From positions 1 through 63,557 of the forward strand of contig CAMJOE010000001.1 of assembly GCA_946407485.1 (NCBI GenBank): a stretch of DNA of 63,557 nt, written 5' to 3'. This document shows, piece after piece, positions 3,071 through 55,735 of the stretch (position 1 is its first letter; the number at the start of each line of letters is the position of its first letter). This DNA is from an uncultured Prevotellaceae bacterium (GTDB taxonomy: Bacteria; Bacteroidota; Bacteroidia; Bacteroidales; Bacteroidaceae). Below the pieces are notes generated by a model. It saw only the letters and a list, made by a program, of their open reading frames with translations, was not told the origin of the DNA and did no database searches. Made by a program: the position numbers and the translations under genes.

Positions 3071-3086
3071 CGCAAAGGAGGGAAAA

Positions 3087-8066: not shown

Positions 8067-8090
8067 AGTTAAATAATTAGAAAATGTGAT

Positions 8091-8566: not shown

Positions 8567-8576
8567 CTACATTTCT

Positions 8577-16777: not shown

Positions 16778-19700
16778 CTATTCCTGGTCGGCCATGAGGT
16801 TGAGGACGTAGGTGTAATCGGCCACATCGACCTCGCCATCCTTATTGACGTCGCCCGAGACGGAGTAGCTATCGTCGGCCATAAGGTTGAGAATGTACGT
16901 TGCGTCGGCCACATCGACTGCACCGTCGCCGTTGGCATCGCCGGGCATTCCGAAGCCGCAGAGCAGGGCATAGTCGTCGCGCTCAACCTGCCACTGGAGC
17001 AGAGGCCAGCCGTTACCGATGACACCATTCTCGTGCCAACCTTGCCATTTGCTTGCGATATCGCATATCTCCTCCTGGTTCGTGCCGTCGTAGAAGAGAA
17101 CATCTATCAGCGAGGGATGAGGTCCGGTGATGGAGGTCGGCCAATCGGCAAGAACATCAGCCTGGCTACCATTGGCTTTGCCTGCGGAGTAGCTCCTTTG
17201 CATGGTGAAATCAGCATTGACATAACCTATCATGTCCATTCCTGAATTGCCAAGTACTGCAGCATTGGTGTAGCAGTTTTGGATGTCGGCATACGACATA
17301 ACCGAACCGATGAAACCTGCAGCAAAGCCCCATTCGGACTTAACCGTTCCGTTGACATATACACCATTGATTGTAGTGGTGGGGGCATCCTCTGCCTCAT
17401 ATCCTGCGCGACCTGCCAAGATGCCTACGCTCTGTGCATTGCCGCCATCGACGGTTGCATTGTAGAAGCCAAGGTTCTTGACTGTGCCCACAAGAGCGCC
17501 GAAGAAGCCTGCCTCAAACTCATTGTCCTTGTTGGCGGCAATGGTCAGGTTCTTGATGATGTGACCTGCGCCGTCGAGGTCGATGGCCTTGCCGTAGCCC
17601 TCTTCGTAGCTGTTAGCATAGAACGTGCTGTTCATGGGCCACCAGCCTTCGCCCTGCATGTCGATGTCGGCAGTCAGCTTGGCGTAAGTCGTCTTGCCGT
17701 CAGCCATGCGGTCGCGCAGGCTCTGCAGGTCAAACTTGTTGGCAATCTGGAAGGGATTGCTCTCGGTACCGTTGCCCTTCGTGTCGAGCAGCGTAGCCTT
17801 CATGCTGGCCTTGTCCATGTCGAACTCGATGAGATACTTGCCGGCAGGCGAGATGCGCCAAGTGCGGTCGAGGCCACGCACGAGGTCGGTCACCTCCTGT
17901 CCGCTCTGGAGCTCGAGGTATTGCTCTTCGCTGCCATAGCGCGCCTCGGTCCAACTGCCGCGAGTCGTCTGGCTATAGTTCACCATCTCCTCAGTGCTGC
18001 GACATGTCATGATGCCGAACGAGCAGAAGGGATTGCTGTTGTCGTTCACGAGGTCCACAACGCCGACGTACTTGCCGCTGCCAACATGCTGCAGGGGTAC
18101 TTGCTCGTCGTTCTTCCAACGCATCAGGCTGCCCTGGCGATTGTTAAGCGTACCCGTCACAAACACCGCGTTGTCCCAATTGTACTCGTCCTGTAGAGCG
18201 AAGTCAACAGTCATCTTGTCGAGGTCGAGCACAACGTTATAGGTACCGTTAAGCGCCTGGAAGTCGCTGCCACCCTCCTGCACGTCGAAGCGATGGCGTC
18301 CGGGCGTGATGAAGCTGCGCGTGCCGTCGGTGCTCTTGTAGATAGTGTTGATGCGACGGAAGTAGAGGCCTGCACGCTGGTAACCGCCGATGCGACGGCT
18401 GCGGTCCTGAAGAGTCACGGTACCTACGAACTGGCCCTGTGCGTTCATTTTCAACGGATAGAGCGGGCACATCTGAGCGTAAGGCCATTCGCTGTTCTCG
18501 CTGTTCTCGTCGTAAAGGTCGCCCTGAACATAGACTACGCCACCGATGGCAGGATTCGTCATCAGCTCGGCGATTTTCTGTTCGGCTTCTTCGTCGGTCA
18601 GTGTGCCATTGATGACGATTCCCTCGAGTTCGTTATAGACTTCTATCATCTGGTCTTGCTGATTGCCAGGTTCGAGGCCGTCGGCCATGTCCGAAGCAAA
18701 CAGCGCAATCTCGAACAAGCGCTTATAGACGTCCACGCTGGCAGGAACGGCTGCAAACTCGGCATTCATCTCCTCGATGAGCTTCAGCTGCTGCTCTGTG
18801 TCGGCAGTCCTGGCTTGAGCTATCTTGCTGCGGATGGCATCGATATGCGACTGGCTGAGATAGTATTCCTGATCGTAGCGCTGCTGGTCGATAAGCTCTA
18901 CGCGCTCGCTATACTGGTCGAGGATGGCATTGATGGCATTGCTGCTCTCGCCCAAGTAAGTGAGGCGGAAGTTGCCCCAGATGGTCAGGTTCTTGTTGCG
19001 CCAAGGGGTCTCGCCGTTGCGGATGCCGATAGTGAGCTTGCCACCCTTCACGATGCCGTAGGCCGTCTGTTCGTAGCGCTTACCGTTGAACGCGAAGCTG
19101 GCCGTGTATATGTTGTCGGGCACGAAGTATCCGTCACCCTCCTCTGTGTCGATGTCCACGCTGCCTGTCTGCTCACCGTTGTGCGGAGCGGTCTCGTCAT
19201 CAGTGGCATCGTAGCGGCAGTTGACGCCGTTCTCTGCATCTGCATAGCTGACCTTGTCGGCATAGACACTCAGCACGGGCGTCTGGAAGTCGTTAACGAA
19301 GAGCTGAGCGGGGATGACGTCCGTGCCGTCGATAAGGCCTTCGTGACCTTGCCCCGGACGATGGAAAGCCTGAGCGGTGAGGGCGTAGATGCCGTCACTG
19401 AGACCTGTTATCTCCTGGCTGACCTCGAACGCCATATTATAGGCGGCAGCCACGGGGAAGACGTCAGTGAAGCCTCCGTTGTGCACCATGTTGTAGCCGC
19501 TCTCAGTGCGACCCTCGGTGACGGTCCAGCCATTCCAAGCCACAGCATTGTCGAACTTGGGATTGACGATAAGAGAGGTCAAGTCGGAGCCCTCGGCAGC
19601 GCTGTTCAGGATTGCCGTCTGGAGAAGCTGCTGCGCAAAGGTAGTCTCAGCTGCGAGTTGCTCAGCATCGAGCAGACGCGTATTCATTATATATAAATAT

Positions 19701-28507: not shown

Positions 28508-28515
28508 TACCTTTG
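28508..28515 (+). promoter_or_regulatory. -7 box (TAccTTTG) for HAD phosphatase
   Basis: 21 nt upstream of ATG 28537. Confidence 0.6.
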
Positions 28516-28536
28516 CAGCGCGGAGGAAAAACACAG

Positions 28537-29181
28537 ATGAAGTATAAGGCAATCATATTCGATCTGGACGGGACGCTGACGGATACGCTCGAGGACCTTT
28601 TCCTGAGCGTGAACTACGCCCTGCGCAGCTGCGGGCTGCCCGAAAGACAACTCGACGAGGTGCGGCGCTTCGTAGGTAACGGCGTCAGGAAACTCATCGA
28701 GCGAGCCGTCCCGAAAGGCACGAAAAGGACGGTGCTGGAGAATTGCTTCGAGGCTTTCAAGGCGCACTACATCATTCATTGCCAAGACCATACGTGCCTC
28801 TATCCAGGTGTGGCAACCCTGCTCATGACGCTCCACACCCACGGCTACCGCATGGCGGTGGTCAGCAATAAGCTGCAGACGGGCGTCGACGAACTGTCGC
28901 ACACCTTCTTCAACGGCGTGATAGACGTGGCGATAGGCGAGCAGCCGGGCGTTCCGCGCAAGCCCGAACCGGACATGGTGGAGAAGGCCCTGAGCATGCT
29001 TGGCGTGACGAAGGACGAGGCCATCTATGTGGGCGACTCCGACGTGGACTTGCAGACGGCCTCGAATGCCGGACTGCCATGCATCTCCGTGCTGTGGGGA
29101 TTCCGCAGCAGAGACTTTCTCGTGGCCAACGGCGCCACTATCTTCGCCGAAAAGCCACAGGATGTATTGGCGCTCGTCTAG
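28537..29181 (+). CDS. HAD-superfamily phosphatase (phosphoglycolate phosphatase-like)
   Basis: MKYKAIIFDLDGTLTDT (motif I), VVSNK, GDSDVD. Start placed at ATG 28537, 21 nt after a TAccTTTG box, rather than at the track's 28513. Confidence 0.8.
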   Translation: MKYKAIIFDLDGTLTDTLEDLFLSVNYALRSCGLPERQLDEVRRFVGNGVRKLIERAVPKGTKRTVLENCFEAFKAHYIIHCQDHTCLYPGVATLLMTLHTHGYRMAVVSNKLQTGVDELSHTFFNGVIDVAIGEQPGVPRKPEPDMVEKALSMLGVTKDEAIYVGDSDVDLQTASNAGLPCISVLWGFRSRDFLVANGATIFAEKPQDVLALV

Positions 29182-29275
29182 GCAAACCGTAATTCTCCCT
29201 TCATGATTCATAATCCTGCCAGTCCAATTGCGTTGGATTGCGTAGCAATATGGAGAAAATCACGCTGAACCATAA

Positions 29276-34170: not shown

Positions 34171-37155
34171 ATGGGAAATAGTATGGCAAGAAACAACTGG
34201 CAGAAGGCTAAGCTTTGCGGCATGATGTGCATCGTGCTGCTTGCTCTGCTTGTGTCTTGCTCTACGAAGAAAAACACGTCCACCACGCGTGCCTACCACG
34301 CTCTGACCGCCCACTACAACACGCTCTACAACGGGCAAGTGGCCTACCTCGAGGGCTTTGAGGCGCAGAGTAAAGGTCACAAGGACAACTTCAACGAGAT
34401 ACTGCCCATGTACATCTGCACGAGCAAGGCAACGGCAAACCTGGGCAAGAGCAACTTCGAGACAGCCATCACCAAGAGCGAGAAGGCAATCAAGGTGCAC
34501 AGTATCAAGAAGCGTCCCATCATCAAAGGTAACAGCAAGCGCACGGAAAAGGAGAAGGCGTTCCTGGCTCGCAGGGAGTTCAACCCCTACATATATCGCG
34601 CCTGGTTCATGATGGCCGATGCGCAGTTCCAGAAAGGTGAGTTCTTCGAGGCTGCTTCCACTTACAACTACATTCTCCGCCTTTACAGCACGCAGCCCGA
34701 CATCACGTCTGTGGCGAAGGCAAAGCTGGCGCGATGCTACGTAGCGCTTAACTGGCCGTACGACGCTGAAGACCTCCTCAACAAGATGAAGAGGGACACC
34801 ATCACGCGTAAGGGCGAGAAGGAGGTGGAGAACACCAAGGCCGGCTATTACGTGCTGACGCATCAGTATCAGGAAGCCATTCCGCACCTGAAGAATGCCA
34901 TCAAGACGACGCGCGGCAAGCTGCCCAAGGCGCGCCTCAACTTCCTGCTGGCACAGCTTTATCACGAGACGGGTCGCGACACGATGGCCTATAAGACGCT
35001 CTCTAAAGTGATACGCGCCAACCCGCCTTACGAGGTGGCGTTCAACGCCCGCATCATGCAGACCGAGGTGATGCACAAAGGCAAGTTCCGCCAAATGATA
35101 GCCCGCCTCAAGCGCATGGCAAGGAGCGACAAGAACAAGGACTACCTCGACAAGGTCTATTACGCGATGGGCAACATCTACCTCGCCAACGAGGACACCA
35201 CGCACTGCATCTATGCCTGGGAGAAAGGCTTGGAGGAGAGCAAGAAGAACGGTCCCGACAAGGCGACCTTGCTCTTGCATCTGAGCCAGCTCTACTGGGA
35301 GCAGGAGAACTATATCGAGGCGGCACGCACCTATAAGCTTTGCGTCGGCGCCCTCGACAAGGAGCATCAGGAATACAAAGAGACGGAGCGTCGCAGCAAG
35401 ATACTTAACGACCTGGAGCCTCACCTGAGCACCATCAAGCTGCAAGACAGCCTGCAGGTGCTTGCCCAAAGTCCCGAGGAGGTTTACCTCGCAGCCATCG
35501 ACCGCGTCATTGCTGAACTCCGCAGGAAGGAAAAAGAGGAGGCGAAGAAGGCTGCCGCGAACGGTACGCTCAACCCTAACGCCATGAACAATGGCATGAT
35601 GGCAGCCGCGGCCACCGGCATGGGCAAGGACGCCGCCGCTGCTCAGATGAACCAGATGGGCATGATGGGTGGGCAGCAGCAAGGCGACTGGTACTTCTAC
35701 AACCCCATGGCGGTTCGCAACGGCCAACAGGAGTTCCAGCGTCGGTGGGGCACACGTCCCAACGAGAACTTCTGGCGCATAAGCAACAAGCAGTCCCTCC
35801 TTGCAAACATGAGCGAGGAAGAGGCCAAGAAGTATGAGGGAATGGATGAGGCGATGGCCGACAGCCTCTTCGGAGCGGCCACCAGTGCTGCCGAAGCAGA
35901 CAGCATCGCATCAAAGGAGCAGGCACGCAAGGACTCGCTTGCCAACGACCCACACCATCGCGAGTTCTACCTCAAGCAGATACCTTTCACGGAGGAACAG
36001 ATGGAAGCATCCAACCAATTGCTTGGCAACGCCCTCTACAATGCAGGAATACAGGAACAGGAGCAGCTCGAGAACTTCCCGCTGGCTGAGAAGACGATGA
36101 TTCGCTTCCTCAATGACTTCCCGGAACACGAGGGCACGGACAACGTCTTCTATCACCTCTTCCTGCTCTACGGCCGCCTTGAGGACCTGGAGGGTGCCGA
36201 GGAGTACAAGGGCTACCTGCTCGAGGACTACCCCGATGCCAAGCTTGCCTTCCTCCTGGGCAACCCGAACTACGAGATGATAGCACGCGAGGGCAAGCAC
36301 GTCGAGGACAGCATCTATGCGGAGGCCTATGCAGCCTATCAGACTGAGAACTACAAAAAGGTGGAGGAGAACTACCAGTTCAGCACCGACAACTTCCCAG
36401 AGGGCAAGCACCGCGCCCGCATGATGTTCGTCCGCGCCATGAGCTCGCTCTACGACGGGCAGCGCGACACGTTCATGGTGACCTTGCGCGACGTGATACA
36501 GAAGTTCCCGAAGGAGGAGGTGACGGAGCTGGCGCAAGCCATCGTCAAGGGGCTTGACGAGGGACGTCTCCTCATGGACGACCGCTACGACGCAAGCAGT
36601 ATATGGAGCCGCCGCACACGTAGCGAAGCGGGCGACAGCACAGCGGCAGAGCCCGTCCTCAAGGACGACCGCTACAGCAATTTCAACTTCGTGCTGGCTT
36701 ACCCGACAGGCAGCCTCGACGAGAACATGCTGGTCTTCGAGATGGCTCACTACAACTTCACCAACTTCATGGCTCGAAACTTCGACATCGAGATACAGGC
36801 CGACGCCGGGCTGACGATGATGGTGATCAAGGGATTCCTTTCATACGACGAGGTGCACGCCTACGCACAGCGACTCCACGCCGACGAACACATGCGCACT
36901 CGGCTCGAAGGCATACGCACGCTGCTTATCTCCGACGACAACCTCAAGATGATCGGCAAGGAGTTCAGCTTCGACGACTACAAGGCATTCTACGACGAGC
37001 ACTTCGCACCGCTCGACGTGCCCGAAGACCTCAAGATAGACACCCCGGCCGACCTCGAGATCCTCGATCCCGACGAGTTAGACAAGCGCGAGCAGGAGGA
37101 GAAGGAGCAGGAAGCAGAAACCCAGGAAGAGGACGACTTCCCGTTTGGCTGGTAA
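34171..37155 (+). CDS. porW: T9SS periplasmic TPR lipoprotein PorW/SprE
   Basis: Lipobox LLALLVSC. N-terminal TTRAYHALTAHYNTLYNG block and TPR-rich body as in SprE/PorW. Q/M/G-rich low-complexity tract and acidic tail. Confidence 0.75.
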   Translation: MGNSMARNNWQKAKLCGMMCIVLLALLVSCSTKKNTSTTRAYHALTAHYNTLYNGQVAYLEGFEAQSKGHKDNFNEILPMYICTSKATANLGKSNFETAITKSEKAIKVHSIKKRPIIKGNSKRTEKEKAFLARREFNPYIYRAWFMMADAQFQKGEFFEAASTYNYILRLYSTQPDITSVAKAKLARCYVALNWPYDAEDLLNKMKRDTITRKGEKEVENTKAGYYVLTHQYQEAIPHLKNAIKTTRGKLPKARLNFLLAQLYHETGRDTMAYKTLSKVIRANPPYEVAFNARIMQTEVMHKGKFRQMIARLKRMARSDKNKDYLDKVYYAMGNIYLANEDTTHCIYAWEKGLEESKKNGPDKATLLLHLSQLYWEQENYIEAARTYKLCVGALDKEHQEYKETERRSKILNDLEPHLSTIKLQDSLQVLAQSPEEVYLAAIDRVIAELRRKEKEEAKKAAANGTLNPNAMNNGMMAAAATGMGKDAAAAQMNQMGMMGGQQQGDWYFYNPMAVRNGQQEFQRRWGTRPNENFWRISNKQSLLANMSEEEAKKYEGMDEAMADSLFGAATSAAEADSIASKEQARKDSLANDPHHREFYLKQIPFTEEQMEASNQLLGNALYNAGIQEQEQLENFPLAEKTMIRFLNDFPEHEGTDNVFYHLFLLYGRLEDLEGAEEYKGYLLEDYPDAKLAFLLGNPNYEMIAREGKHVEDSIYAEAYAAYQTENYKKVEENYQFSTDNFPEGKHRARMMFVRAMSSLYDGQRDTFMVTLRDVIQKFPKEEVTELAQAIVKGLDEGRLLMDDRYDASSIWSRRTRSEAGDSTAAEPVLKDDRYSNFNFVLAYPTGSLDENMLVFEMAHYNFTNFMARNFDIEIQADAGLTMMVIKGFLSYDEVHAYAQRLHADEHMRTRLEGIRTLLISDDNLKMIGKEFSFDDYKAFYDEHFAPLDVPEDLKIDTPADLEILDPDELDKREQEEKEQEAETQEEDDFPFGW

Positions 37156-37205: not shown

Positions 37206-38753
37206 ATGAACTACAAACTGCTTTGGGTTGACGATGAGATTGAGCTCCTGAAGGCTCACATCCTTTTCCTCGAGAAGAAGGGCTACGAGGTGGAGACCGT
37301 GTCGAACGGCTACGACGCCCTTGACCGCTGCGCCGAAGAGGCGTTCGACCTCATCCTGCTCGACGAGAACATGCCCGGCCTCAGCGGTCTCGAGACCCTG
37401 ACCCGCGTGAAGGAACTGCTGCCCGCCACGCCTGTGGTGATGGTGACTAAAAGCGAGGAGGAGCACATCATGGAGCAAGCCATAGGCGCCAAGATTGCCG
37501 ACTACCTCATCAAGCCCGTCAATCCGACACAAATCCTGTTGACGCTCAAGAAGAACATCCAGCAGAGGGAAATAGTGACCGAACACACGCAAAGCAACTA
37601 CCAACAGGACTTCGCGCGCCTCGGCATGCAAATCAACGACGCATCCAACCTCGAGGAATGGAAAGACGTCTATAAGAAGCTGACGTACTGGGAGCTGCAG
37701 CTGAGCGAGACGGAGAGTGGCATGCAGGAGATGCTCGCGATGCAGCGCCACGAGGCAAACGCCGAGTTCTCGAAGTTCATCCGAAAGAACTACCTGCGCT
37801 GGATGGAGAAGCCGGAGGAGCGCCCCGTGATGAGCCCCGACATCTTCAAGCGCGCCATCTTCCCCCTGCTCGACAAGGGCGAGAAGGTATTCCTCATCGT
37901 CATCGACAACTTCCGCTACGACCAGTGGCGCGTCTTGTTGAACGAGATCGGCGACGCCTTCACGGTCGAGGAGAATCTCTATTGCAGCATCCTCCCGACG
38001 GCGACGCAGTACGCACGCAACGCCATATTCAGCGGCCTCATGCCCAACAACATCGCCAAGATGTTTCCCGACCTCTGGGTCGATGAGGACAGCGAGGAGG
38101 GCAAGAACCTCAACGAGGAACCTCTCGTCAGGACTCACTTCGAGCGCTACCGCCGCAAGAACACGTTCTCGTACCATAAGATAAACCATTCCAGCGCCGC
38201 CGAGAAGTTCGTATCCCAGATAACGCAACTGAAAAGGAACGACTTGAATGTCGTGGTCATAAACTTCATCGACATGCTCAGCCACGCACGCACGGAGAGC
38301 CTCATGGTGAGGGAACTGGCGAGCAACGAGGCGGCCTATCGCAGCATCACGCAGAGCTGGCTGCGCCACTCGGCCGTGAGCGACCTCTTCCGCAGCCTGG
38401 CTGCCCAGGGATGCACCGTCGTGCTGACCACCGACCACGGCAGCATCCGATGCTACAACCCCATCAAGGTCATCGGCGACCGCAACACGAACACAAACCT
38501 CCGCTACAAGCTGGGCAAACACCTCTCCTACAATCCCAAGGAGGTTTTCGAGATAAAGGAGCCCCTCCGCGCAGGCCTGCCCAGCCCCAACCTCAGCACG
38601 ACCTACATCTTTGCCATGCAGGAAGATTTCTTCGCCTATCCCAACAACTACAACTACTACGTGCAGTACTACAAGGACACGTTCCAGCACGGCGGCATCA
38701 GCATGGAGGAGATGCTCATCCCGCTCGTCACGCTGAGAGGGAAGAAGCGGTGA
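37206..38753 (+). CDS. porX: T9SS response regulator PorX (receiver + PglZ/alkaline-phosphatase-like domain)
   Basis: CheY-like N-terminus (LWVDDEIELL, LLDENMPGLSG). PglZ blocks LPTATQYARNAIFSG, DMLSHAR, TTDHGS, FQHGGIS. Length and layout match P. gingivalis PorX as I remember it. Confidence 0.85.
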   Translation: MNYKLLWVDDEIELLKAHILFLEKKGYEVETVSNGYDALDRCAEEAFDLILLDENMPGLSGLETLTRVKELLPATPVVMVTKSEEEHIMEQAIGAKIADYLIKPVNPTQILLTLKKNIQQREIVTEHTQSNYQQDFARLGMQINDASNLEEWKDVYKKLTYWELQLSETESGMQEMLAMQRHEANAEFSKFIRKNYLRWMEKPEERPVMSPDIFKRAIFPLLDKGEKVFLIVIDNFRYDQWRVLLNEIGDAFTVEENLYCSILPTATQYARNAIFSGLMPNNIAKMFPDLWVDEDSEEGKNLNEEPLVRTHFERYRRKNTFSYHKINHSSAAEKFVSQITQLKRNDLNVVVINFIDMLSHARTESLMVRELASNEAAYRSITQSWLRHSAVSDLFRSLAAQGCTVVLTTDHGSIRCYNPIKVIGDRNTNTNLRYKLGKHLSYNPKEVFEIKEPLRAGLPSPNLSTTYIFAMQEDFFAYPNNYNYYVQYYKDTFQHGGISMEEMLIPLVTLRGKKR

Positions 38754-42438: not shown

Positions 42439-42458
42439 ATATTTTTCAAAATCTGCTG

Positions 42459-42466
42459 CAAAGATA
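42459..42466 (-). promoter_or_regulatory. -7 box (TAtcTTTG) for GH78 gene
   Basis: 20 nt upstream of ATG 42438. A divergent TAccTTTA box at 42479-42486 (+) precedes the SSF transporter. Confidence 0.6.
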
Positions 42467-42518
42467 CGAAAAATTTCGTACCTTTACACACGAAATCCGC
42501 AATAAAGTCATTCTTCGC

Positions 42519-43985
42519 ATGTCCAATCTTCTCGTTTTCTCCGCTTTGGGGCTTTACATACTGCTGCTTGTCCTCTTTACGAGGCTTGTGAAAACGAAGG
42601 GCGACAACAACGCCTTCTTTCGTGCCGGCCGCAAGTCGCCGTGGCTGCTCGTCGCCTTCGGCATGATAGGGGCGAGCATCAGCGGTGTGAGCCTCGTCAG
42701 CGTGCCGGGCTGGGTGCATCAGAACGGCATGACCTACATCCAGATGTGCCTTGGCTTCTTCGCCGGCTTCGTCTGCATCGCCTTTCTCCTGCTGCCGCTC
42801 TACTACAGGCTTCGCCTCACCAGCATCTACGGCTACCTTGCCGAGCGGTTCGGGCGCCGCAGCCATCTGACGGGCGCTTGCTTTTTCCTCTTGAGCAAAC
42901 TCACAGGCGCCGCAGCACGCCTCTTCCTGACGTGTACCGTGCTTCACGAAATGGCCATCCGCCCTCTCGGTCTCCCCTTCGCCTTCACGGTAGGCGTCGT
43001 GCTGCTCGCCATCTTTCTCTATACGAGGAAAGGCGGTATCGAGAACATCGTCCGCACAGACGCCCTGCAGACCTTCTGCATGCTTCTTGCCACGGGTTGC
43101 ATCGTCTGGGGCGTGTCGATGAAGATGAACCTCTCGCCCTCCGGCATAGCGGACACCATCGCCAGCAGTCCCATGGGGCAGATGTTCTGCTGGGACCCGT
43201 CGAGCACGCAGTTCTTCTTGAGGCAGTTCATCAATGGCATGTTCATTACCATCGTCATGAACGGCCTCGACCAGGACATGATGCAGAAGAACCTGACCTG
43301 CAGTTCTTTGCGAGCCGCGCAGAAGAACATGTGCCTCTATGGCTTTTGCATCCTGCCCGTCAACCTTCTCTTCCTCGCGCTCGGCGTCTTGCTCTACACC
43401 TTTGCTGCCCAGGAAGGGCTCGCCATCCCCGAAGCCGGCGACCGCTTGCTGCCGATGCTTGTGGGCCAGGGAGTGCTGGGAACCTTCGTCGTCTTCCCTT
43501 TCACCATCGGCATCACCGCGGCGGCGCTCTCCAGCGCAGACAGCGCGATGACCTCGCTCACCACGAGCATCTGCGTGGACATCCTCAGGATTGAGCAAAA
43601 AGGAGTAGAGGCGGAGAGCGCCCTTCGCACCCGGCATCGCGTCCACGTCGCGGTAGCCCTTGCCTTCGCCCTCTGCATCGCCGTCTTCCACATCGCAGGC
43701 AGCGGCACCATCATCGACACCATCTACCGCCTGGCCGGCTACACCTACGGCCCGCTGTTAGGACTCTTCAGCTTCGGCCTCTTCACGCGCAGAACTGCGA
43801 ATGACCATGCCGTGCCCTACATCGCCGTTTTCTCCCCCATCATCTGTGCCTTTTTGGATTACCTCGCCCCGCTTCTCTGGAACTACCGCTTCAGTTACGA
43901 ACTCCTCCTGCTCAACGCCGCCCTGACCTTCCTCGGCCTTCTCATCACATCCCGCCCCGCGTCACATCGCAAAACGACTCGTTAG
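42519..43985 (+). CDS. sodium:solute symporter family transporter
   Basis: Multi-pass hydrophobic protein with FRAGRKSPWLLVAFGMIGASISGVSLVSVPG, typical of SSF. Start moved to ATG 42519 (MSNLLVF..) downstream of a TAccTTTA box. Confidence 0.75.
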   Translation: MSNLLVFSALGLYILLLVLFTRLVKTKGDNNAFFRAGRKSPWLLVAFGMIGASISGVSLVSVPGWVHQNGMTYIQMCLGFFAGFVCIAFLLLPLYYRLRLTSIYGYLAERFGRRSHLTGACFFLLSKLTGAAARLFLTCTVLHEMAIRPLGLPFAFTVGVVLLAIFLYTRKGGIENIVRTDALQTFCMLLATGCIVWGVSMKMNLSPSGIADTIASSPMGQMFCWDPSSTQFFLRQFINGMFITIVMNGLDQDMMQKNLTCSSLRAAQKNMCLYGFCILPVNLLFLALGVLLYTFAAQEGLAIPEAGDRLLPMLVGQGVLGTFVVFPFTIGITAAALSSADSAMTSLTTSICVDILRIEQKGVEAESALRTRHRVHVAVALAFALCIAVFHIAGSGTIIDTIYRLAGYTYGPLLGLFSFGLFTRRTANDHAVPYIAVFSPIICAFLDYLAPLLWNYRFSYELLLLNAALTFLGLLITSRPASHRKTTR

Positions 43986-44813: not shown

Positions 44814-44987
44814 ATGGGAGATCTAAAAGAATTAAGGAAATTGTTATCTGAAAATGATAACAGGTTGAACGAATCCACTATTTTGCCGATATATGTGTAT
44901 TTGGCAAATGGAGGAAGAGTAGCAGATTATGAAAATCAAGAAGAGTTAAAACAGGTATTAAAAAGATTTAAAGAACTTGTATCATGA
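44814..44987 (+). CDS. small hypothetical protein translationally coupled to the GLUG/cohesin gene
   Basis: 57-aa helical ORF (MGDLKELRKLL..). Its TGA overlaps the ATG of the next gene (ATGA at 44984-44987). An alternative GTG start lies at 44784. Confidence 0.35.
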   Translation: MGDLKELRKLLSENDNRLNESTILPIYVYLANGGRVADYENQEELKQVLKRFKELVS

Positions 44988-47900
44988 AACGTCTATTAAA
45001 TTCAGCAGTAGTGTTCCTCTGCTTTGTAGCAACATCGTTTGCTCAATTTAGTGGATCTGGGTCAGGAACAGAGAATGACCCTTATCTGATTTTCAATGAA
45101 ACTCAGTTGTCACAGATGTCAAATTTCCTTAATCAGGAGGGCATCGTATTTAAGTTGATGAAGGATTTGGATCTTACAAATTGGATATCTGAGAATAATC
45201 CACGACAGGGATGGATACCAATTGGGGTGCAGTCTACACCATTCAAAGGTAAGTTTTATGGAAATAATCACATTATCTCCGGTTTGACGATAACTCGAAC
45301 CTCTGCCAATAATGTTGGATTCTTCGGTTATGTCAGTAACGCTACAATAAGTGACTTGACGATTGAGGGGTCGAGTATAGCTGCCTCACAAGATGTCGGC
45401 GGTTTGGTTGGACATATCATCAATTCTTCTGTGAGCAACTGCCATGTGACATTGACAGGAATAAATGGTGTATATGGTTCTTCCAATGTTGGTGGCTTAG
45501 CTGGCTACTCAAATAGCACCAACTATACAACATTTAGTGTAGAAGCCTCTGTCGCAGCATCCGAGAATGTTGGAGGATGTATTGGAAAGGTGGAAAATGG
45601 TGGTGTAATAGAAGGTGGCAGTGTTACAGGTACAATTATCAGTCAAGGCAGTTATGCTGGTGGTTTGATAGGTAAAGCAACGAACCACACTCTTAGAGGC
45701 ATTAATGTGAGTAGTGATATCGTTGGGCAAGACTACACTGGCGGCATTACTGGTTACAGTTCCAAAGGCATCTTGATAACTTGTACCTATAGGGGCACGC
45801 TTTCCGGTAAGCAGTTCGTTGGAGGTATAGCCGGTTCGGTTCAAGAAGGAGGTACCTGTTTTGATTCTTGCTATTCTATTGGAAAGATTATATCAACAGG
45901 TGATTACTGTGGTGGGATAGCAGGTATTATCCCAGGGTTCATTGAAGAGATGAAGAATTGCAGCCACTTTGGTGATATTAATGGACAATCTTATACTGGT
46001 GGTTTGATTGGTGCGGTGCCCGGAGATAATAATTATAGAGCGTCGTTGGTGGCATTTAAAAATGTGGATAATTGTACTGTTATAGGCAATATAACGGGTC
46101 TGTCTTTTGTGGGAGGACTAATTGGAAGTGAGACCCCTTCGCATTACCATAAAGTGTTCCTAGACCTTAAAAACAGCTATTTTAGTGGTACCATTCAAGG
46201 AACAAAAAATGTTGGGGGGTTGTATGGCCGTAAGTGTTACGGTACGATTCAGAACAGCTATGCATACGCCAATATTTTCGGCACATCAAATGTTGGAGGA
46301 ATTGTAGGTTATATATCAAGTGACTCATATTTCAACTATAGAACGGTCATAAAATCGAATGTCTCAAATAATGCGGTTATTTCTGCAACGACTTCTGACG
46401 TTGGTCGCATCTACGGAAAGGCTGACAACACGGATGACGTTGTTATAGGTGCTTTAGCATCAGCGGAGGGCAATCGCGCTTTGACACAGACCCGTGTTAT
46501 TCTTAGCGGCGTAATACAGGAAGTGGAAGATGATTTGCAGAACGGAACAAGCATAGGTCCGTCGTTGCTTCGTCTGAAAGCAACCTATGTCTCTATGGGT
46601 TGGGATTTCGATAACAATTGGAACATTTTAGAAACGGAATGCTATCCTTATAAGAAGTATCAGGCTGCGCCACCAGTGATAGAAAGCAATCTTGTTTCAC
46701 AATCAACTATTATAAGCGGGAAAAGTGTTGATAATGGTACTGTTTACCTTTATTATAAAGATCGCGAAGCAATGTCCATACAATGCAATAACCATCAATG
46801 GGCATTCAACATTGAACCTTTGCAGAGTGGAGCACAGGTACAAATTTATACTGATGTAGAAGGAATGACTCCTTCATACTTCACCACATCTATAGTCGGC
46901 TATCCTGGCAGCGGCACAGAGAGTGAACCATGGCGCATTTATACAGCCGAAGATTTACAGGGCACCAACAACCGAGGATACTACAAAGTGATGAATGATA
47001 TTGACCTCACCTCTTGGATTAACCAAAATAGCCCAACAGAGGGATGGCCTGCAATAGGACGTGACAGCGGTGAAGCTACATATATAGATGGTGATGGGCA
47101 CAAAATATCAGGACTTTGGACAAATACTACCCAAAATTATACTGGTCTGTTCTCAAACTTCTCGGCTGGACAAATTAAGAACCTTAACGTAGAAGTGGCA
47201 ACAGGAAAGAAAGTTAAGGGCGGCGATTATACGGGAATCCTAATAGGTCGTAATGCTCAAGGAAGCATAGTAAACTGCTCTGTCACGGGTGACGTAGAAG
47301 GAATGACTCATACCGGTGGTGTTGTAGGATATATTGAAGCGTCAAAAATAAGTAATGTAACTTATGAAGGCAGTGTCTCTTCAAGTGGGGATGAATCTTT
47401 TGTAGGTGGTATTGCTGGTCAGGCGAAAACTTGTTCCGTGAATGGTTGCATATCGACTGCAAATATCTCGACCATTGGCGCTAATAGTCGTGTAGGCGGA
47501 CTCATTGGTGACGCAAAAGAAGGGAGCATCAGCAGATGTTTCGTCAGCACTACATTAGAAGCAACAGGTACAAGCAATACTGTAGGTGGACTTGTTGGTT
47601 ATAGTATGACACCTATTACCTTGTCTGTTTCAACGGGGAACGTGTCGGCAACAGGAAACAATTCATACACAGGTGGATTGGTTGGTTATGCATTGTCGCC
47701 TGTTAACAATAGTTATAGTACAGCAAAAACTACAGGTACACTCTATTCTGCAGGATTGATTGGATACACCTTCAGCACAATTGACAAATGTTATGCTACA
47801 GGAAATATTTATGGTGACATGTATGGAGCTGGTTTGGTTGGTGAACTTGACGGACAAGGCGCTCGTCTTACGAACAGTGTAGCTTGCAACAATATCCTGG

Positions 47901-49489
47901 AATTAACAGCACAATCATCGTGGGGCTGTCGTGTAATCGGTGGATTCAAAAATGGTGCAGAAGATCCTGACCAAAGCAACTATGCTTTAAAAACCATGCA
48001 AGTTTCCTTAAATGGTGTGCCACAAGTGAAAACAGATGATTTGGTAGAGGGAGTTGCCAAGACTAAACTTGAGTTAATGACAGCAACAACATACCAAGGT
48101 ATTGGTTGGGATTTCGATACAATATGGCAAATTGAAGAAGGACTAGGCTACCCATATCTTCAGGGCTCCTCTACAGTTGGCCCGACACCTCCTGACAACG
48201 AAGATGACTTTATTGATACAGACATTTCAGCACTTGACAATGTAATTTATGTAGAAAGAGCAGAAACCGCTCCTGGAAACGAATTGATACTATCTATTAA
48301 GATGAAGAATTCGGCAGCAATTCGCGGCTTCCAATTTAATCTCAGTTTACCCGATGGCGTTACCATAGCTAAAAATAACAATGGAAAAGTGTTGGCTTCA
48401 CTGAGTGATGGCAGGTTACCCGAAGATGACCAGCATACTCTAACCGTTAACGAACAATCAGATGGCAGCTATCTCTTCTTATGTGGTTCGCTTTATGAGG
48501 AGACATTTACAGGAAACGAAGGAGAAATAGCAACGGTAAAAGTTAATGTCTATCTAGGAATGGAAGATGGAAAATATCCGATAACATTGAAAAACATTAA
48601 ACTGACGGAGAGCGACATCAGTAAATACTACGAAATAAGGGAAGTAAAGTCAACGCTTGCCATAACATCTTGTATTATAGGTGATATTAATGGTGACTGG
48701 AAAGTGGATATAAGTGATTATATTGGCATAGCTAACCGCATTTTGGGTTATGCTCAGGAAGGTTTTAATGAAAAGGCTGGTGATGTTAATAGTGATGGAT
48801 TTATTGATGTTTCTGATTATATAGGTGTTGCAAATATAATTCTTACAGGTTCTATCTATGGAAGTCAACAACATGCTAGTTCTCGTTTACAGAGTGCAGA
48901 TGCTACAGGCCTTATAACCGATGAAAATGTTATTTACGTGGCTCCACAGTCGGTAATTTCCGGAGAAATTGTAATGTTGAGCATTTGTATGAACAATACG
49001 GCACCTATTCGTGGTTTCCAGTTCGACCTTTATCTGCCAGAAGGGGTAATTGCAGCCAAAAACACTAACGGGCGTTTCATATGTTCCTTAAATAATAATC
49101 GTTTGGAGGCCGACGATGAGCACACACTAACGTTGGCAGAACAGCAGGATGGAGGAATTCGCTTCCTTTGTGGCTCACAATATGATGAAAATTTCATAGG
49201 TAACGAAGGAGAGATTGCCACTTTGATGGTGAGGGTAGACGAAAAAATGCCTTATGGTAGCTATCCCATTGTTTTAAGAAATATGAAGTTGTCAGAGACT
49301 AACATTAATAACTTCTATGAGACGGAGTCCATAGAAACCTATCTAACCATAGATAGTCCCGATTGCCTATACGGAATGGAGAGTAAAACACAATTGAGGC
49401 AAGATTTTTACTTGCTATCTGGCCAACGTGTTCAGAAACCCATAAAGGGTGTAAATATTATAAGTGGAAAGAAAGTGTTAGTGAAATAA
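44984..49489 (+). CDS. 1501-aa GLUG-repeat surface protein with cohesin-dockerin-cohesin modules and T9SS CTD
   Basis: Signal peptide ..ATSFA/QF. Many GLUG units (VGGLVGHIINSSVSNC, VGGLAGYSNS, VGGIVGYI..). Cohesin-like modules at about 48236-48670 and 48923-49365 (AIRGFQFNLSLPDGV / PIRGFQFDLYLPEGV). Dockerin at about 48681-48850 (DINGDWKVDISD..DVNSDGFIDVSD). C-terminal KGVNIISGKKVLVK. Confidence 0.75.
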   Translation: MKRLLNSAVVFLCFVATSFAQFSGSGSGTENDPYLIFNETQLSQMSNFLNQEGIVFKLMKDLDLTNWISENNPRQGWIPIGVQSTPFKGKFYGNNHIISGLTITRTSANNVGFFGYVSNATISDLTIEGSSIAASQDVGGLVGHIINSSVSNCHVTLTGINGVYGSSNVGGLAGYSNSTNYTTFSVEASVAASENVGGCIGKVENGGVIEGGSVTGTIISQGSYAGGLIGKATNHTLRGINVSSDIVGQDYTGGITGYSSKGILITCTYRGTLSGKQFVGGIAGSVQEGGTCFDSCYSIGKIISTGDYCGGIAGIIPGFIEEMKNCSHFGDINGQSYTGGLIGAVPGDNNYRASLVAFKNVDNCTVIGNITGLSFVGGLIGSETPSHYHKVFLDLKNSYFSGTIQGTKNVGGLYGRKCYGTIQNSYAYANIFGTSNVGGIVGYISSDSYFNYRTVIKSNVSNNAVISATTSDVGRIYGKADNTDDVVIGALASAEGNRALTQTRVILSGVIQEVEDDLQNGTSIGPSLLRLKATYVSMGWDFDNNWNILETECYPYKKYQAAPPVIESNLVSQSTIISGKSVDNGTVYLYYKDREAMSIQCNNHQWAFNIEPLQSGAQVQIYTDVEGMTPSYFTTSIVGYPGSGTESEPWRIYTAEDLQGTNNRGYYKVMNDIDLTSWINQNSPTEGWPAIGRDSGEATYIDGDGHKISGLWTNTTQNYTGLFSNFSAGQIKNLNVEVATGKKVKGGDYTGILIGRNAQGSIVNCSVTGDVEGMTHTGGVVGYIEASKISNVTYEGSVSSSGDESFVGGIAGQAKTCSVNGCISTANISTIGANSRVGGLIGDAKEGSISRCFVSTTLEATGTSNTVGGLVGYSMTPITLSVSTGNVSATGNNSYTGGLVGYALSPVNNSYSTAKTTGTLYSAGLIGYTFSTIDKCYATGNIYGDMYGAGLVGELDGQGARLTNSVACNNILELTAQSSWGCRVIGGFKNGAEDPDQSNYALKTMQVSLNGVPQVKTDDLVEGVAKTKLELMTATTYQGIGWDFDTIWQIEEGLGYPYLQGSSTVGPTPPDNEDDFIDTDISALDNVIYVERAETAPGNELILSIKMKNSAAIRGFQFNLSLPDGVTIAKNNNGKVLASLSDGRLPEDDQHTLTVNEQSDGSYLFLCGSLYEETFTGNEGEIATVKVNVYLGMEDGKYPITLKNIKLTESDISKYYEIREVKSTLAITSCIIGDINGDWKVDISDYIGIANRILGYAQEGFNEKAGDVNSDGFIDVSDYIGVANIILTGSIYGSQQHASSRLQSADATGLITDENVIYVAPQSVISGEIVMLSICMNNTAPIRGFQFDLYLPEGVIAAKNTNGRFICSLNNNRLEADDEHTLTLAEQQDGGIRFLCGSQYDENFIGNEGEIATLMVRVDEKMPYGSYPIVLRNMKLSETNINNFYETESIETYLTIDSPDCLYGMESKTQLRQDFYLLSGQRVQKPIKGVNIISGKKVLVK

Positions 49490-49523: not shown

Positions 49524-49658
49524 ATTCAGATATTTATTATCCATGAGTTCAAAGACATCATCCCTTTAATTGGCTCAATCAGTAATTTTTCTTATTTTCA
49601 GCGCGAAGCATTACAAAAGAAATTTTATCCAAATCGGATAATCCATTTTGGGTAATTG

Positions 49659-50687
49659 TCAGGCTTTCAGCATCTGCCGGGTTTGTTCGATGAGGGCGAA
49701 GACGTCCTCTTTTTTTTCAGCACGGAGCATGGCGATGCGGGTGTCGCGGTAGTTGGGGATGCCTTTGAAGAGGGGCGTTGCGGCGAGATGGCGGCGGACA
49801 TGCCTGATGCCGCACAGCTCGGGGTCTTTGCCGAACTTGGCCTTGATGGGGTCTTGCGAGGCGCGGTCGATGCTGATGAGCACTTGTTGTTTAAGTATGT
49901 CTATCTTCTCGTCGAGCGTGAGGGGCTGCTCGGGATGCGCTATCTCGTGGAAGATCCAAGGGCGTCCGAAGGTGGCGCGGCCTATCATGACGGCATCGAC
50001 GCCATAGCGGTCGAAGGCTTGCCGCGCCTCTTCGGCAGAGGTGATGTCGCCGTTGCCGATGATGGGGATATGCATGCGGGGATTGGCCTTCACCAGTCCG
50101 ATGTTCGTCCAGTCGGCGTCGCCCATGTACATCTGTGCTCTTGTGCGGCCGTGGATGGTCAATGCCTTGATGCCGCAGTCCTGCAAGCGCTCGGCCAGGT
50201 CGACGATGAAGGGCGTGCCGTCGGGCAAAAGGAGGTGCTTTTCGTCCCAAGCCAAACGGGTCTTGACGGTGACGGGCGTGTCGGGGACAGCCTCCACGAC
50301 AGCCTTTGTTATCTCGAGGATGCCGGGAACATTCTGCAGCATGCCGGCTCCGGCACCTTTGCTTGCGACCTTCTTGACAGGACAGCCGAAGTTGATGTCG
50401 AGCACGTCGGGGTGCGCCTGTTCAACGACGATACGTGCCGCCTCGCGCATCGCATCGACGTCCTTGCCGTAAATCTGTATGGCGACGGGTCGCTCCTCGG
50501 GGCAAATCTGCAGTTTCAGGAGGCTTTTGTTGACGAGACGGATGAGGGCGTCGCTCGAGACGAACTCCGAATAGACCATAGCCGCGCCCATCTGTCGGCA
50601 AAGCAGACGGAAGCCGATATCCGTCACGTCCTCCATCGGCGCCAGTAGCACAGGGCGCTCCCCCAGGTCAATCGTTCCAATCTTCAC
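49659..50687 (-). CDS. dusB: tRNA-dihydrouridine synthase
   Basis: LAPMEDVTDIGFR, LDINFGCP and LTIHGRTRAQ blocks. Confidence 0.85.
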   Translation of the reverse strand: MKIGTIDLGERPVLLAPMEDVTDIGFRLLCRQMGAAMVYSEFVSSDALIRLVNKSLLKLQICPEERPVAIQIYGKDVDAMREAARIVVEQAHPDVLDINFGCPVKKVASKGAGAGMLQNVPGILEITKAVVEAVPDTPVTVKTRLAWDEKHLLLPDGTPFIVDLAERLQDCGIKALTIHGRTRAQMYMGDADWTNIGLVKANPRMHIPIIGNGDITSAEEARQAFDRYGVDAVMIGRATFGRPWIFHEIAHPEQPLTLDEKIDILKQQVLISIDRASQDPIKAKFGKDPELCGIRHVRRHLAATPLFKGIPNYRDTRIAMLRAEKKEDVFALIEQTRQMLKA

Positions 50688-51236: not shown

Positions 51237-52229
51237 CTATTGTTCATTGTAAATCAACTGCGTTAAAGTTTGCCCGACTGCTTCGAGGACGTTCGGGTCG
51301 ATGTTATCGGGCGTGTCTTTTATCGTGTGCCACGTGGGGCCGAAGCTGCTCGAACCATCTTTATAATAAGGTATGATGTCGATGCACGGCACGCCGGCTG
51401 CGTTGACGTTTACGTGGTCGTCGGTGACGTATCCAGCATCGGTGAGGGGGAAGAACTGCCTGTATCCGAGCTGCCCTGCCAATTGCCAGACGAGGTTGAC
51501 GATAGGCTGAGCCAGCTGCCTGCTGATGCCTTCGCGGGAGAACGTAGCGCCGAAGCCGCCCACCATGTCGAGCAGTACGCCGTAGCGTGCTTTGTAGCCA
51601 TCGGCCCTGGCGCGTTCGGCCCAGACCTTCGAGCCGAGGCACCATGTGTCGGACGCGCCGAGACGGTCCTCCTCGAAGAGCGGGGTGCCCAGGTCCTCAG
51701 CGTCGAAGCATATCATGTCAACGCCCACCTGGACGGGCTTCTCCTGTATGAGTCGGCATATCTCGAGCATGACGGCGACGCCGCTTGCGCCATCGTTGGC
51801 CGCCAGAACAGGTGTGCGATGGTTCGCCTCGTCGTCATCGTTGTCGGCCCAAGGGCGTGAGTCCCAGTGGGCACAGAGCAGGATGCGGTCGGGGTTGCTG
51901 GGGGCGATGCGCGCGATGATGTTTCGTGCGGGCAGCATCGAGCCGTCCCAGATGGTGACGTCAGCCGTCTGTTCCTCTACCTCAGCGCCAAACGCCTTGA
52001 AGCGCTCCACGATGTAGTCGCCGCACCGTCGCGAGGCGTCGCTGCCCGGCACGCGTGGGCCGAACTCGCACTGCTCTTTGATGTAGAGCATGGCATTGCT
52101 GGCAGAGAAGCGCGGACAGGAGGCGAGGGCGATGGTGTCGGCCTTCGAGGCGCTCCCTTTCGACTGACCGTCGCAGGAGGCAAGCATGAGGAATATAATG
52201 GCGGGAAGCCAGAAGATAACTCTTTTCAT
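51237..52229 (-). CDS. M28-fold glutaminyl-peptide cyclotransferase (glutaminyl cyclase) lipoprotein
   Basis: Lipobox FLMLASC. M28 metal-site blocks (LLCAHWDSRPWAD, FDAEDLG). Size and layout resemble the type II QC of Porphyromonas. Could also be a plain M28 peptidase. Confidence 0.65.
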   Translation of the reverse strand: MKRVIFWLPAIIFLMLASCDGQSKGSASKADTIALASCPRFSASNAMLYIKEQCEFGPRVPGSDASRRCGDYIVERFKAFGAEVEEQTADVTIWDGSMLPARNIIARIAPSNPDRILLCAHWDSRPWADNDDDEANHRTPVLAANDGASGVAVMLEICRLIQEKPVQVGVDMICFDAEDLGTPLFEEDRLGASDTWCLGSKVWAERARADGYKARYGVLLDMVGGFGATFSREGISRQLAQPIVNLVWQLAGQLGYRQFFPLTDAGYVTDDHVNVNAAGVPCIDIIPYYKDGSSSFGPTWHTIKDTPDNIDPNVLEAVGQTLTQLIYNEQ

Positions 52230-54699: not shown

Positions 54700-54810
54700 G
54701 TCGGCCGACGCTTGCTGTGGGAATCGACTTTCCTTGCTGTGGGAAAAGCCGACGCTTGCTGTGGGAAATGGCGTTCCTTGCTGTGGGAAAAAACGACGCT
54801 TGCTGTCAGC
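54700..54810. repeat. CTTGCTGTGGG-family array, 5 units, overlapping the xerD stop
   Basis: CTTGCTGTGGGAA.. occurs 4 times and CTTGCTGTCAGC once, at 22-24-bp spacing. Confidence 0.8.
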
Positions 54811-55735
54811 TCTTGATGTTCCTCGGGTGGTGCTCCAGGATCTCCTGCCTCAAATGGCTCTTGTCGATGTGCATGTAGATCTCCGTCGTGCCGATGTCTT
54901 CGTGCCCGAGCATCGCTTGGATGGCCCGCAGATTGGCACCGCCCTCCAGGAGCTGCGTGGCGAAGCTGTGGCGGAATGTGTGCGGACTGATGCTCTTCTT
55001 GATACCCGCCTGCTCGGCATACGCCTTGATATAGACGAAGAGAGAGATGCGGCTGAGGTGCTTGCCGCGTCGCAGGGAGATGAACACGTAGTCCTCCTCG
55101 CCCGGCTTTACCGTGATGTCCTGCCGCACGACGAACCATTGCCGCAGCTTCTCGATGGCGCCCTCGCCGATGGGAACCAACCGCTCCTTCCTCCCCTTGC
55201 CGTGAACGCGGATGTACCCCTCCTCGAGATAGAGCTCGCTTAGCTTCAAGTTGACCAGTTCGCTGATACGCAGGCCGCAGCTGAACAGCACCTCTATGAT
55301 GGCCAAATCGCGTATGCCCTCCGGTTTGCTCAGGTCGATGGCGGCCTCGATGGCGTCTATCTCGGGCAGACTCAACACCTCGGGCAGGTGCTTCCCTATC
55401 TTCGGACTCTCCAACAGCTCAGTAGGGTCGGTCTCTATCTCCTTCTCGATGGTCAGGAAGCGATAGAACGAACGCACGCCGCTCAGTATTCGCGCCACCG
55501 AGCGCGGCCCGACACCCAGCTCCTGCAAAGCCTTCGCGAAGTGGTCCAGCTGCTCGAGCGTCACCCGACGGAAGTCGATGCCCTCGTCGGCATAATAGTT
55601 CAGGAGCTTCTGCAGGTCCTTAAGGTAGGCGTCGAGCGTGTTGGCGGTGTACGACCGCTCAAGTCGCAGGTACTGGAAGTAGCGGCGAAGGATGGCGTTG
55701 CCCACAACATTCGTATTTGTCAGTTCATAGTGCAT
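54806..55735 (-). CDS. xerD: tyrosine site-specific recombinase XerD
   Basis: HTFRHSFATQLLEGGANLRAIQAMLGHEDIGTTEIYMH carries the catalytic HxxR..Y. Divergent from aroQ, as in many Bacteroidales. Confidence 0.85.
   Translation of the reverse strand: MHYELTNTNVVGNAILRRYFQYLRLERSYTANTLDAYLKDLQKLLNYYADEGIDFRRVTLEQLDHFAKALQELGVGPRSVARILSGVRSFYRFLTIEKEIETDPTELLESPKIGKHLPEVLSLPEIDAIEAAIDLSKPEGIRDLAIIEVLFSCGLRISELVNLKLSELYLEEGYIRVHGKGRKERLVPIGEGAIEKLRQWFVVRQDITVKPGEEDYVFISLRRGKHLSRISLFVYIKAYAEQAGIKKSISPHTFRHSFATQLLEGGANLRAIQAMLGHEDIGTTEIYMHIDKSHLRQEILEHHPRNIKS

Follow-up and report, generated by a model that had tools for sequence, protein, structure and literature searches.

What is a dockerin doing between two cohesin-like modules at the C-terminus of a secreted protein from a Gram-negative rumen lineage? 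The question is raised by a gene in the window analysed here, the whole 63,557-nucleotide stretch of contig CAMJOE010000001.1 (assembly GCA_946407485.1) from an uncultured Prevotellaceae bacterium. A sequence-only reading, made without database searches, had proposed that the gene belongs to a cellulosome-style surface assembly system, on a protein bearing GLUG repeats and anchored through a type IX secretion system (T9SS). Our analysis leads us to see the protein as a T9SS-anchored cohesin-dockerin-cohesin node in a Ca2+-dependent cohesin-dockerin network at the cell surface, a reading to which we assign a probability of roughly 0.6. The gene and its parts, with the evidence for each, are as follows.

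44984..49489 (+): whole gene, an intact open reading frame (ORF) encoding a secreted GLUG protein with a C-terminal cassette of cohesin, dockerin, cohesin and short C-terminal domain (CTD); Pfam Glug and Dockerin_1
44984..45043 (+): Sec signal peptide, residues 1-20, read from the sequence together with its putative cleavage site between ...ATSFA and QFSG
45044..46651 (+): first passenger array, of GLUG repeats, with a GWDFDxxW...YPY motif at its end; Pfam PF07581, boundaries drawn by eye
46904..48163 (+): second passenger array, of GLUG-like repeats, with another GWDFDxxW...YPY motif at its end; repeated (V/T)GG(L/I)(V/I)G motifs, boundaries drawn by eye
48236..48670 (+): cohesin module 1, residues 1085-1229; AlphaFold2 (AF2), Foldseek and our family hidden Markov model (HMM), 226 bits
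48680..48865 (+): type I-like dockerin, residues 1233-1294, with near-identical segments DINGDWKVDISDYIGIANRIL and DVNSDGFIDVSDYIGVANIIL; Pfam PF00404, Ca2+ loops and AF2 helices
48923..49357 (+): cohesin module 2, residues 1314-1458; identity to module 1, family HMM 215 bits and high predicted local distance difference test (pLDDT) scores in the cassette model
49388..49486 (+): short T9SS C-terminal signal, residues 1469-1501 (33 residues); our tail HMM, AF2 and fit to a published description (PMC11969387)

The product is 1501 residues long and carries its signal peptide and both GLUG-type arrays within the N-terminal 1060 residues; the predicted mature N-terminus is a glutamine. Pfam PF07581 was recognised in three stretches, the best at residues 136-156 (E 8.5e-12; 45.1 bits against a cut-off of 20.5), which places the GLUG passenger that had been claimed above the curated threshold. 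The coordinates and the residue pattern given for the two C-terminal modules likewise proved correct, and in silico support was obtained for every architectural element that the sequence-only reading had named, with qualifications for the cohesins and the tail that are set out below.

Between modules 1 and 2, 76 of 145 residues are identical (52%) in a gap-free alignment (E 6e-54). This is far beyond chance, and on sequence the two are clearly paralogues. Their relationship to known cohesins is more distant. Against Pfam Cohesin PF00963 they scored 16.9 and 15.3 bits respectively, below the gathering threshold of 24.1, in alignments covering most of the model. A phmmer search of the PDB with the single sequence of module 1 found no cohesin, returning only an antibody chain at E 0.058, and a profile search was therefore needed to reach one. 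The family profile retrieved cohesin 5 of R. flavefaciens ScaB (PDB 5N5P) at E 1.9e-5 from sequence alone. It also reached proteins with strong PF00963 matches, and precomputed PF00963 annotation is present on many of the homologues.

Structure prediction gave a clearer outcome. A single-module AF2 model, built from an alignment of 32 family modules, had a pLDDT of 97.3, a predicted template modelling (pTM) score of 0.89 and nine main strands arranged in the flattened beta-sandwich of cohesin topology. When the model was compared with the PDB by Foldseek, ranks 1 to 35 were exclusively cohesins, the best with template modelling (TM) scores of 0.77-0.80. Scores were 0.68-0.80 for type I, type III and non-cellulosomal cohesins and about 0.5-0.6 for type II. 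The matches included C. acetobutylicum CohA2, A. cellulolyticus ScaB Coh6, C. thermocellum OlpA, OlpC and CipA, and R. flavefaciens ScaB and ScaC, together with the non-cellulosomal cohesins of C. perfringens and A. fulgidus; sequence identity to these solved cohesins was just 10-19%. The cohesin call of the sequence-only reading thus stands by fold and falls short by the curated Pfam model. Failure in a cohesin HMM search was among the grounds on which that reading said it should be given up, and technically those grounds are present.

Column entropy was calculated over 177 non-identical modules. In strand 3 (IRGFQFDLY) no position falls below 80% conservation, and strand 6 (RFLC) is also strongly conserved. 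The mean entropy was 1.01 on the 8-3-6-5 sheet against 1.59 on the opposite sheet, and the former is the dockerin-binding face in solved cohesin complexes. The conserved positions cluster on strands 3 and 6, which belong to this face. We conclude that the modules are divergent yet genuine cohesin-fold units, and that the conserved face is a candidate for binding a ligand.

The element between the modules scored 32.6 bits against Pfam Dockerin_1 PF00404 in the context of the whole protein and 35.6 bits as an isolated segment, with a cut-off of 22.9. The claim that a dockerin lies there is upheld by these scores and by two intact Ca2+ loops. Loop DINGDWKVDISD is followed by helix YIGIANRIL and loop DVNSDGFIDVSD by helix YIGVANIIL. 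Both loops have the canonical form D-x-N-x-D-x-x-x-D-x-x-D, giving the tandem arrangement of an EF-hand-like loop (Asp or Asn at positions 1, 3, 5 and 9; Asp at 12) and a helix. Two dockerin helices are present in the AF2 model of the cassette, and across the family these helices (DYIGVAN) are conserved as strongly as cohesin strands 3 and 6. A dual binding mode is established for type I dockerins; by analogy, the near-perfect duplication inside this dockerin suggests that it may share it. A homologue search with the 69-residue dockerin alone returned just 25 short fragments and no inventory of ligands.

The possibility should be weighed here that only the folds have been reused in this lineage, the beta-sandwiches serving as spacers or carbohydrate-binding modules (CBMs) and the dockerin-like segment as a Ca2+-binding stabiliser, with no recognition between them. 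The sub-threshold Pfam scores and the 10-19% identity to solved cohesins would suit such a history, as would the wide distribution of cohesin-like and dockerin-like modules that are non-cellulosomal and whose partners are unknown (cited in PMC6487960). Fold reuse does not, however, account for the extreme conservation of strands 3 and 6 precisely on the dockerin-binding sheet, for the equal conservation of the DYIGVAN helices, or for the co-occurrence and adjacency of cohesin and dockerin genes described below. We consider it very unlikely.

How the protein would reach and hold the surface was addressed through its tail. About 43 residues remain after cohesin 2, and neither PF18962 (Pfam) nor TIGR04183 (NCBIfam) matched them at E <= 10. 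A canonical type A CTD, of some 70-100 residues folded as a seven-strand Ig-like sandwich, was ruled out, there being no HMM match, three strands and only about 43 residues. A second class has been described by Ye et al. (2025), who reported 48 "short CTDs" in Prevotella intermedia (PMC11969387). These have a motif B of Y..G with a basic residue or Gln, a motif D of GxY or GxN with Ile, and a motif E of terminal basic residues; motif spacings are short, and a single three-stranded sheet is predicted after a flexible linker (PMC11969387). For short-CTD cargo of P. intermedia, cleavage and C-terminal glycan attachment have been demonstrated experimentally (PMC11969387). The tail in the window shows the motifs and the three strands of this class: motif B is FYLLSGQR, motif D is KGVNI (GxN subgroup) and motif E is GKKVLVK. 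In the AF2 cassette model the motifs coincide exactly with a three-stranded sheet, and the linker that precedes it has a pLDDT below 50.

A tail HMM was built from the tails of homologues. It matched exactly five ORFs in the window, in each case up to the last residue (E 1e-10 to 1e-13), the next-best match having an E-value of 0.056; for the 1501-residue protein the E-value was 2.6e-10 and the alignment ran to the exact C-terminus. The same tail type is therefore carried by four further secreted proteins (E 1e-11 to 1e-13), none of them detected by PF18962 or TIGR04183, so standard counts of T9SS cargo would miss such proteins. These four, and two T9SS genes in the same window, are listed here.

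10965-12524 (-): 519-residue protein without a Pfam match, short T9SS tail; tail HMM
12575-14650 (-): S8 subtilase, short T9SS tail; tail HMM
23716-27708 (-): glycoside hydrolase family 115 (GH115) protein, short T9SS tail; tail HMM
59615-63187 (-): 1190-residue CHB_HEX_C/BACON protein, short T9SS tail; tail HMM
34171..37155 (+): PorW/SprE, T9SS lipoprotein; NCBIfam NF052312, E 2e-199, 665 bits (cut-off 250)
37206..38753 (+): PorX, T9SS response regulator; NCBIfam NF052313, E 6e-253, 840 bits (cut-off 300); Pfam Response_reg and PglZ

Since porW and porX lie side by side in the window, the host has a T9SS. The claim of a T9SS CTD accordingly survives for the short class, by motifs, tail HMM and the presence of porW and porX, and fails for the canonical CTD models, which found no match. 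The 33-residue tail fits a T9SS secretion and anchoring signal of the short class, and on this sequence evidence cleavage and anchoring would be predicted in this host also. In some homologues a longer, CTD-like tail of about 75 residues was seen by eye at the same position; one example was unmatched by NCBIfam at E <= 10. A further gene agrees with the predicted N-terminus. A glutamine cyclotransferase homologue lies at 51237-52229 (-), 1.7 kb downstream of the GLUG gene; its product has an M28 fold and a lipoprotein-like N-terminus and matches PDB 6QRO, 6QQL and 4FUU at E 1e-80 to 1e-98. The proximity of this glutaminyl cyclase homologue fits the N-terminal Gln expected on the mature GLUG protein.

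The cassette belongs to a large family. The C-terminal region of 424 residues, used as a query, found 542 proteins, and an exhaustive profile search with the module retrieved 6166 representative clusters when the cut-off was E <= 1e-3 and 822 when it was E <= 1e-30. Matches in genomes were almost all in metagenome-assembled genomes (MAGs) of Prevotella, Prevotellaceae or Bacteroidaceae from cattle, sheep, goat, deer, buffalo and yak, and several family loci per MAG were common. The passengers of the family are BspA-type leucine-rich repeats (LRR), Big_2, GLUG, RCC1 and FG-GAP domains. Architectures were counted among the 120 best homologues. The arrangement of the window protein (cohesin, dockerin, cohesin, short CTD) occurs in about 26; 22 consist of two cohesins and a short CTD, with no dockerin and hardly any passenger; and 29 have a passenger, one cohesin and a dockerin, at which they end without a CTD. 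Some variants carry an extra dockerin of a second subtype or the longer tail of about 75 residues.

Cohesins lying upstream and downstream of a dockerin do not form separate clades, and identity was 0.635 between cohesins of the same protein against 0.557-0.59 between proteins. Because no position-specific clades exist, the two sockets of the window protein are, judged by sequence, probably equivalent. The idea of cohesin 1 as an "X-module" specialised to serve the adjoining dockerin was rejected for the same reason.

The 29 homologues in which cohesin and dockerin form a fixed pair bring into view the main rival explanation, an intramolecular clasp. Here the dockerin would bind one of the two cohesins beside it in cis, the unit would become a rigid stalk, stabilised by Ca2+, that keeps the GLUG arrays off the surface, and no assembly between molecules would take place. 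The linker between cohesin 1 and the dockerin is very short, and pLDDT is 88-91 across their junction in a four-module chain of pTM 0.61, both of which sit comfortably with such a clasp. A second, equivalent cohesin would nevertheless remain vacant in cis, and the clasp leaves unexplained the abundant proteins with two cohesins and a CTD but no dockerin, the proteins that carry a cassette-type dockerin and no cohesin, and the repeated presence of a dockerin-only gene next to a two-cohesin gene. A purely intramolecular model makes no sense of dockerin-only and cohesin-only proteins, and we regard it as unlikely.

The proteins in question were found as follows. At least five proteins encoded in the Prevotella sp. 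RGIG3601 MAG end in a cassette-type dockerin and have neither a cohesin nor a CTD. Their dockerins are 64-75% identical to the cassette dockerin of the window, and the bearers include a polysaccharide lyase family 11 (PL11) rhamnogalacturonan lyase, an endonuclease I and an RCC1/Big_2 protein. Directly 5' of a two-cohesin gene, at five loci in four assemblies (our loci L035, L055, L056, L079 and L080), lies a dockerin-only gene encoding about 310 residues, in which the dockerin is accompanied by a Sec signal and two small repeated domains. The cohesin gene of the pair ends in a short CTD at four of the five loci (three assemblies); at L035 the cohesin ORF leaves the contig. At four loci (L035, L056, L072 and L079) a gene for a large short-CTD cargo protein is found upstream of the dockerin-only one. 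In L079 (positions 1-9173) the three follow one another: a large short-CTD cargo of 3925 residues, the dockerin-only protein of about 310 residues (6961-7899) and the two-cohesin gene.

Dockerin-less proteins of two cohesins and a CTD, cohesin-less dockerin proteins and this recurring gene pair argue for binding between molecules. The comparative evidence supports and strengthens the reading as a cellulosome-style surface assembly. Binding, with its partners and stoichiometry, is what we infer from the folds, motifs, family size, T9SS context and conserved gene neighbourhoods that were observed.

A route by which such a network could form can be proposed. The protein would be exported by Sec and lose its signal peptide, exposing an N-terminal Gln. 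Once folded in the periplasm, it would be recognised through its 33-residue short CTD, and the T9SS would carry it across the outer membrane. The CTD would then be removed within the flexible linker past cohesin 2, and the new C-terminus joined to a surface glycolipid. Outward from the membrane the predicted order is cohesin 2, dockerin, cohesin 1 and the two GLUG arrays, a putative adhesin or binding passenger. The two equivalent cohesins would offer sockets for proteins with a "DYIGVANxIL" dockerin, and the protein's own dockerin could plug into the cohesins of neighbouring family members or of the small anchoring scaffoldins made up of two cohesins and a CTD. Such contacts would build a surface coat of many cross-linked proteins, able also to recruit dockerin proteins lacking a CTD.

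Several observations weigh against the networked reading. Both modules remain under the Pfam Cohesin gathering threshold, the tail is invisible to the curated T9SS models PF18962 and TIGR04183, and no partner with the same dockerin subtype is encoded in the window. The confident prediction across the junction of cohesin 1 and dockerin, in a cassette model with a pTM of 0.61, could mean packing in cis. Finally, the tail shows no recognisable PT/GI-type cleavage motif, such as most relatives have: most homologues, and two other tails in the window, have (T/A)(T/A)GI at this site, where the 1501-residue protein reads ...DCLYGMESK... and its HMM alignment begins at model position 12.

The dockerin proteins without a CTD raise the question of their export. 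A Sec signal with neither a T9SS CTD nor a lipobox was seen in a 2267-residue protein of the window (considered below), in the protein of about 310 residues, in the adhesins ending in cohesin and dockerin, and in the PL11 lyase and endonuclease I of RGIG3601. Such proteins might dock in the periplasm on a CTD-bearing cohesin partner and cross through the T9SS with it as a folded complex. We know of no description of such hitch-hiker secretion for the T9SS and think it improbable.

A second dockerin in the window has to be considered as a partner for the cassette.

16778-23581 (-): gene of the 2267-residue protein; Sec signal, no T9SS CTD, no lipobox
16781..16945 (-): C-terminal dockerin of this protein, of another subtype (DATYILNLMA / DYTYVLNLMA); both Ca2+ loops, borderline in Pfam

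The sequence-only reading had placed a dockerin at 16781-16945, and by motif it is real, with both Ca2+ loops present and a Pfam Dockerin_1 score of 21.9 bits, just under the cut-off of 22.9. That reading had also cast it as an external ligand of the cassette, and here we found no support. Its helices, DATYILNLMA and DYTYVLNLMA, differ from DYIGIANRIL and DYIGVANIIL of the cassette dockerin and resemble instead the second subtype at the C-termini of some relatives; the two dockerins are 41% identical. Pairing with the cassette cohesins is doubtful because of these differences. It would have the attraction that the cohesins of the 1501-residue protein, encoded 21 kb away in the same window, could act as receptors tethering to the cell a giant that carries a Sec signal, lacks both a CTD and a lipobox, and ends in a dockerin with two intact Ca2+ loops. 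Relatives that combine both dockerin subtypes with divergent extra cohesin-like modules in one protein, however, suggest at least two specificities, and we judge this pairing quite unlikely. The 2267-residue protein also showed a weak match to a pectate-lyase-like adhesive domain.

To place the surface network proposed here among known systems, we compared it with cellulosomal type I and III pairs (CohA2-Doc0917, 6KGF; A. cellulolyticus ScaB Coh6, 5NRM; ScaB Coh5, 5N5P). Common to both are the nine-stranded cohesin sandwich (TM 0.68-0.80) and the duplicated 22-residue dockerin of Ca2+ loop plus helix, which here passes PF00404. A cohesin and a dockerin also occur in one polypeptide in the adaptor scaffoldins ScaA and ScaC of R. 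flavefaciens. The differences lie elsewhere. The host is a Gram-negative member of the Bacteroidota, anchoring is predicted to be by a T9SS CTD rather than by surface layer homology (SLH) domains or sortase, and the passengers are adhesin-like GLUG, LRR and Big_2 arrays where those of cellulosomes are mainly glycoside hydrolases. Identity to solved cohesins is 10-19%, with the window copies under the Pfam threshold. Nor does the system have what defines a cellulosome: dockerins mainly on plant-cell-wall carbohydrate-active enzymes (CAZymes), a CBM on the scaffoldin and an SLH or sortase anchor were not what we found. No CBM or SLH domain was detected, and the dockerin-bearing PL11 lyase of the related MAG is one bearer of CAZyme type.

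Parallels are also offered by the non-cellulosomal systems. Those of the C. perfringens GH84/GH33 toxin complexes (2JH2, 2VO8, 2W1N) and of A. fulgidus (2XDH) were among the top fold matches, and with the R. bromii amylosome and the Limousia "mucinolysome" they use cohesin-dockerin logic outside cellulose breakdown, as here. The bacterial examples come from Gram-positive Firmicutes, the A. fulgidus cohesin is archaeal, and none of these systems is known to be linked to type IX secretion. The short CTDs of P. intermedia share motifs B, D and E and the three-stranded sheet after a flexible linker with the tail in the window; the window copy differs in having no recognisable PT/GI motif and in coming from a rumen lineage, and no cohesin or dockerin cargo is mentioned for them (PMC11969387).

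In the rumen itself, metagenome surveys of Bacteroidetes have counted dockerins and a few cohesins (PMC6487960, PMC6071333), and the role of Prevotella dockerin proteins has been called "not defined yet" (PMC7480376). These studies concern the same ecosystem and phylum and report dockerins on Prevotella proteins; they counted domains and described no cohesin partners, no cohesin-dockerin-cohesin cassette and no link to the T9SS (PMC6487960, PMC6071333, PMC7480376). A T9SS-bearing rumen Bacteroidetes genome was reported to have no cellulosomal components, which was called consistent with other Bacteroidetes (PMC5831590). No account that links a cohesin-dockerin system to the T9SS turned up in our literature search. 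The modules are already known, and their logic resembles that of cellulosomes; the novelty lies in the type of envelope, the route of anchoring and the set of passengers.

The theme of a cohesin joined to a T9SS signal appears to extend across the Bacteroidota more broadly. Distant members of the family have 6-14 cohesins and a canonical Por_Secre_tail, and in two of them Pfam Cohesin was matched at E 1.9e-32 and 2.1e-48, with PF18962 also above threshold. In four giants (P0224, P0189, P0229 and P0259) the cohesin-like modules, 6-14 in number, alternate with spacers of the CarboxypepD_reg or InlB B-repeat type, and the C-terminus is a canonical Por_Secre_tail. Such giant multi-cohesin proteins suggest large T9SS-anchored scaffoldins elsewhere in the phylum. 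The sole match from a cultured organism, in Prevotella sp. P2-180, is distant and apparently interrupted, carries a different dockerin subtype and has no tail match; this strain is a poor experimental proxy.

The locus and its relatives supply candidate cohesin partners, missing until now, for the dockerins of rumen Bacteroidetes. At least 822 close representative clusters have cohesins on T9SS cargo, and candidate anchoring scaffoldins, adaptors and dockerin-only ligands are all found within one lineage. If the proposed network is real, Prevotella, a dominant genus of the rumen, equips its Gram-negative outer membrane with modular complexes of proteins. A new type of cell envelope and a new anchoring chemistry would then be added to the biology of cohesins and dockerins, and orthogonal plug-and-socket parts would become available for surface display in Bacteroidota.

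Further features of the window are listed here.

14988-16697 (+): sulfatase
39688-42438 (-): GH78 alpha-L-rhamnosidase
42405-43985 (+): sodium:solute symporter
54806-55735 (-): XerC/D-type tyrosine recombinase; Phage_integrase and SAM-like N-terminal domain

Together with GH115, the GH78 enzyme, the symporter and the sulfatase, which lie around the locus, suggest a neighbourhood for degradation of plant or host glycans, one that has no SusC/D organisation of a polysaccharide utilisation locus within the window. Many long ORFs run antisense to real genes, for example 49656-50648 (+) against 49659-50687 (-), and antisense ORFs without Pfam matches, such as 42435-43691 (-) and 28453-29211 (-), are best treated as spurious. 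The GC content of the window is 55.5%.

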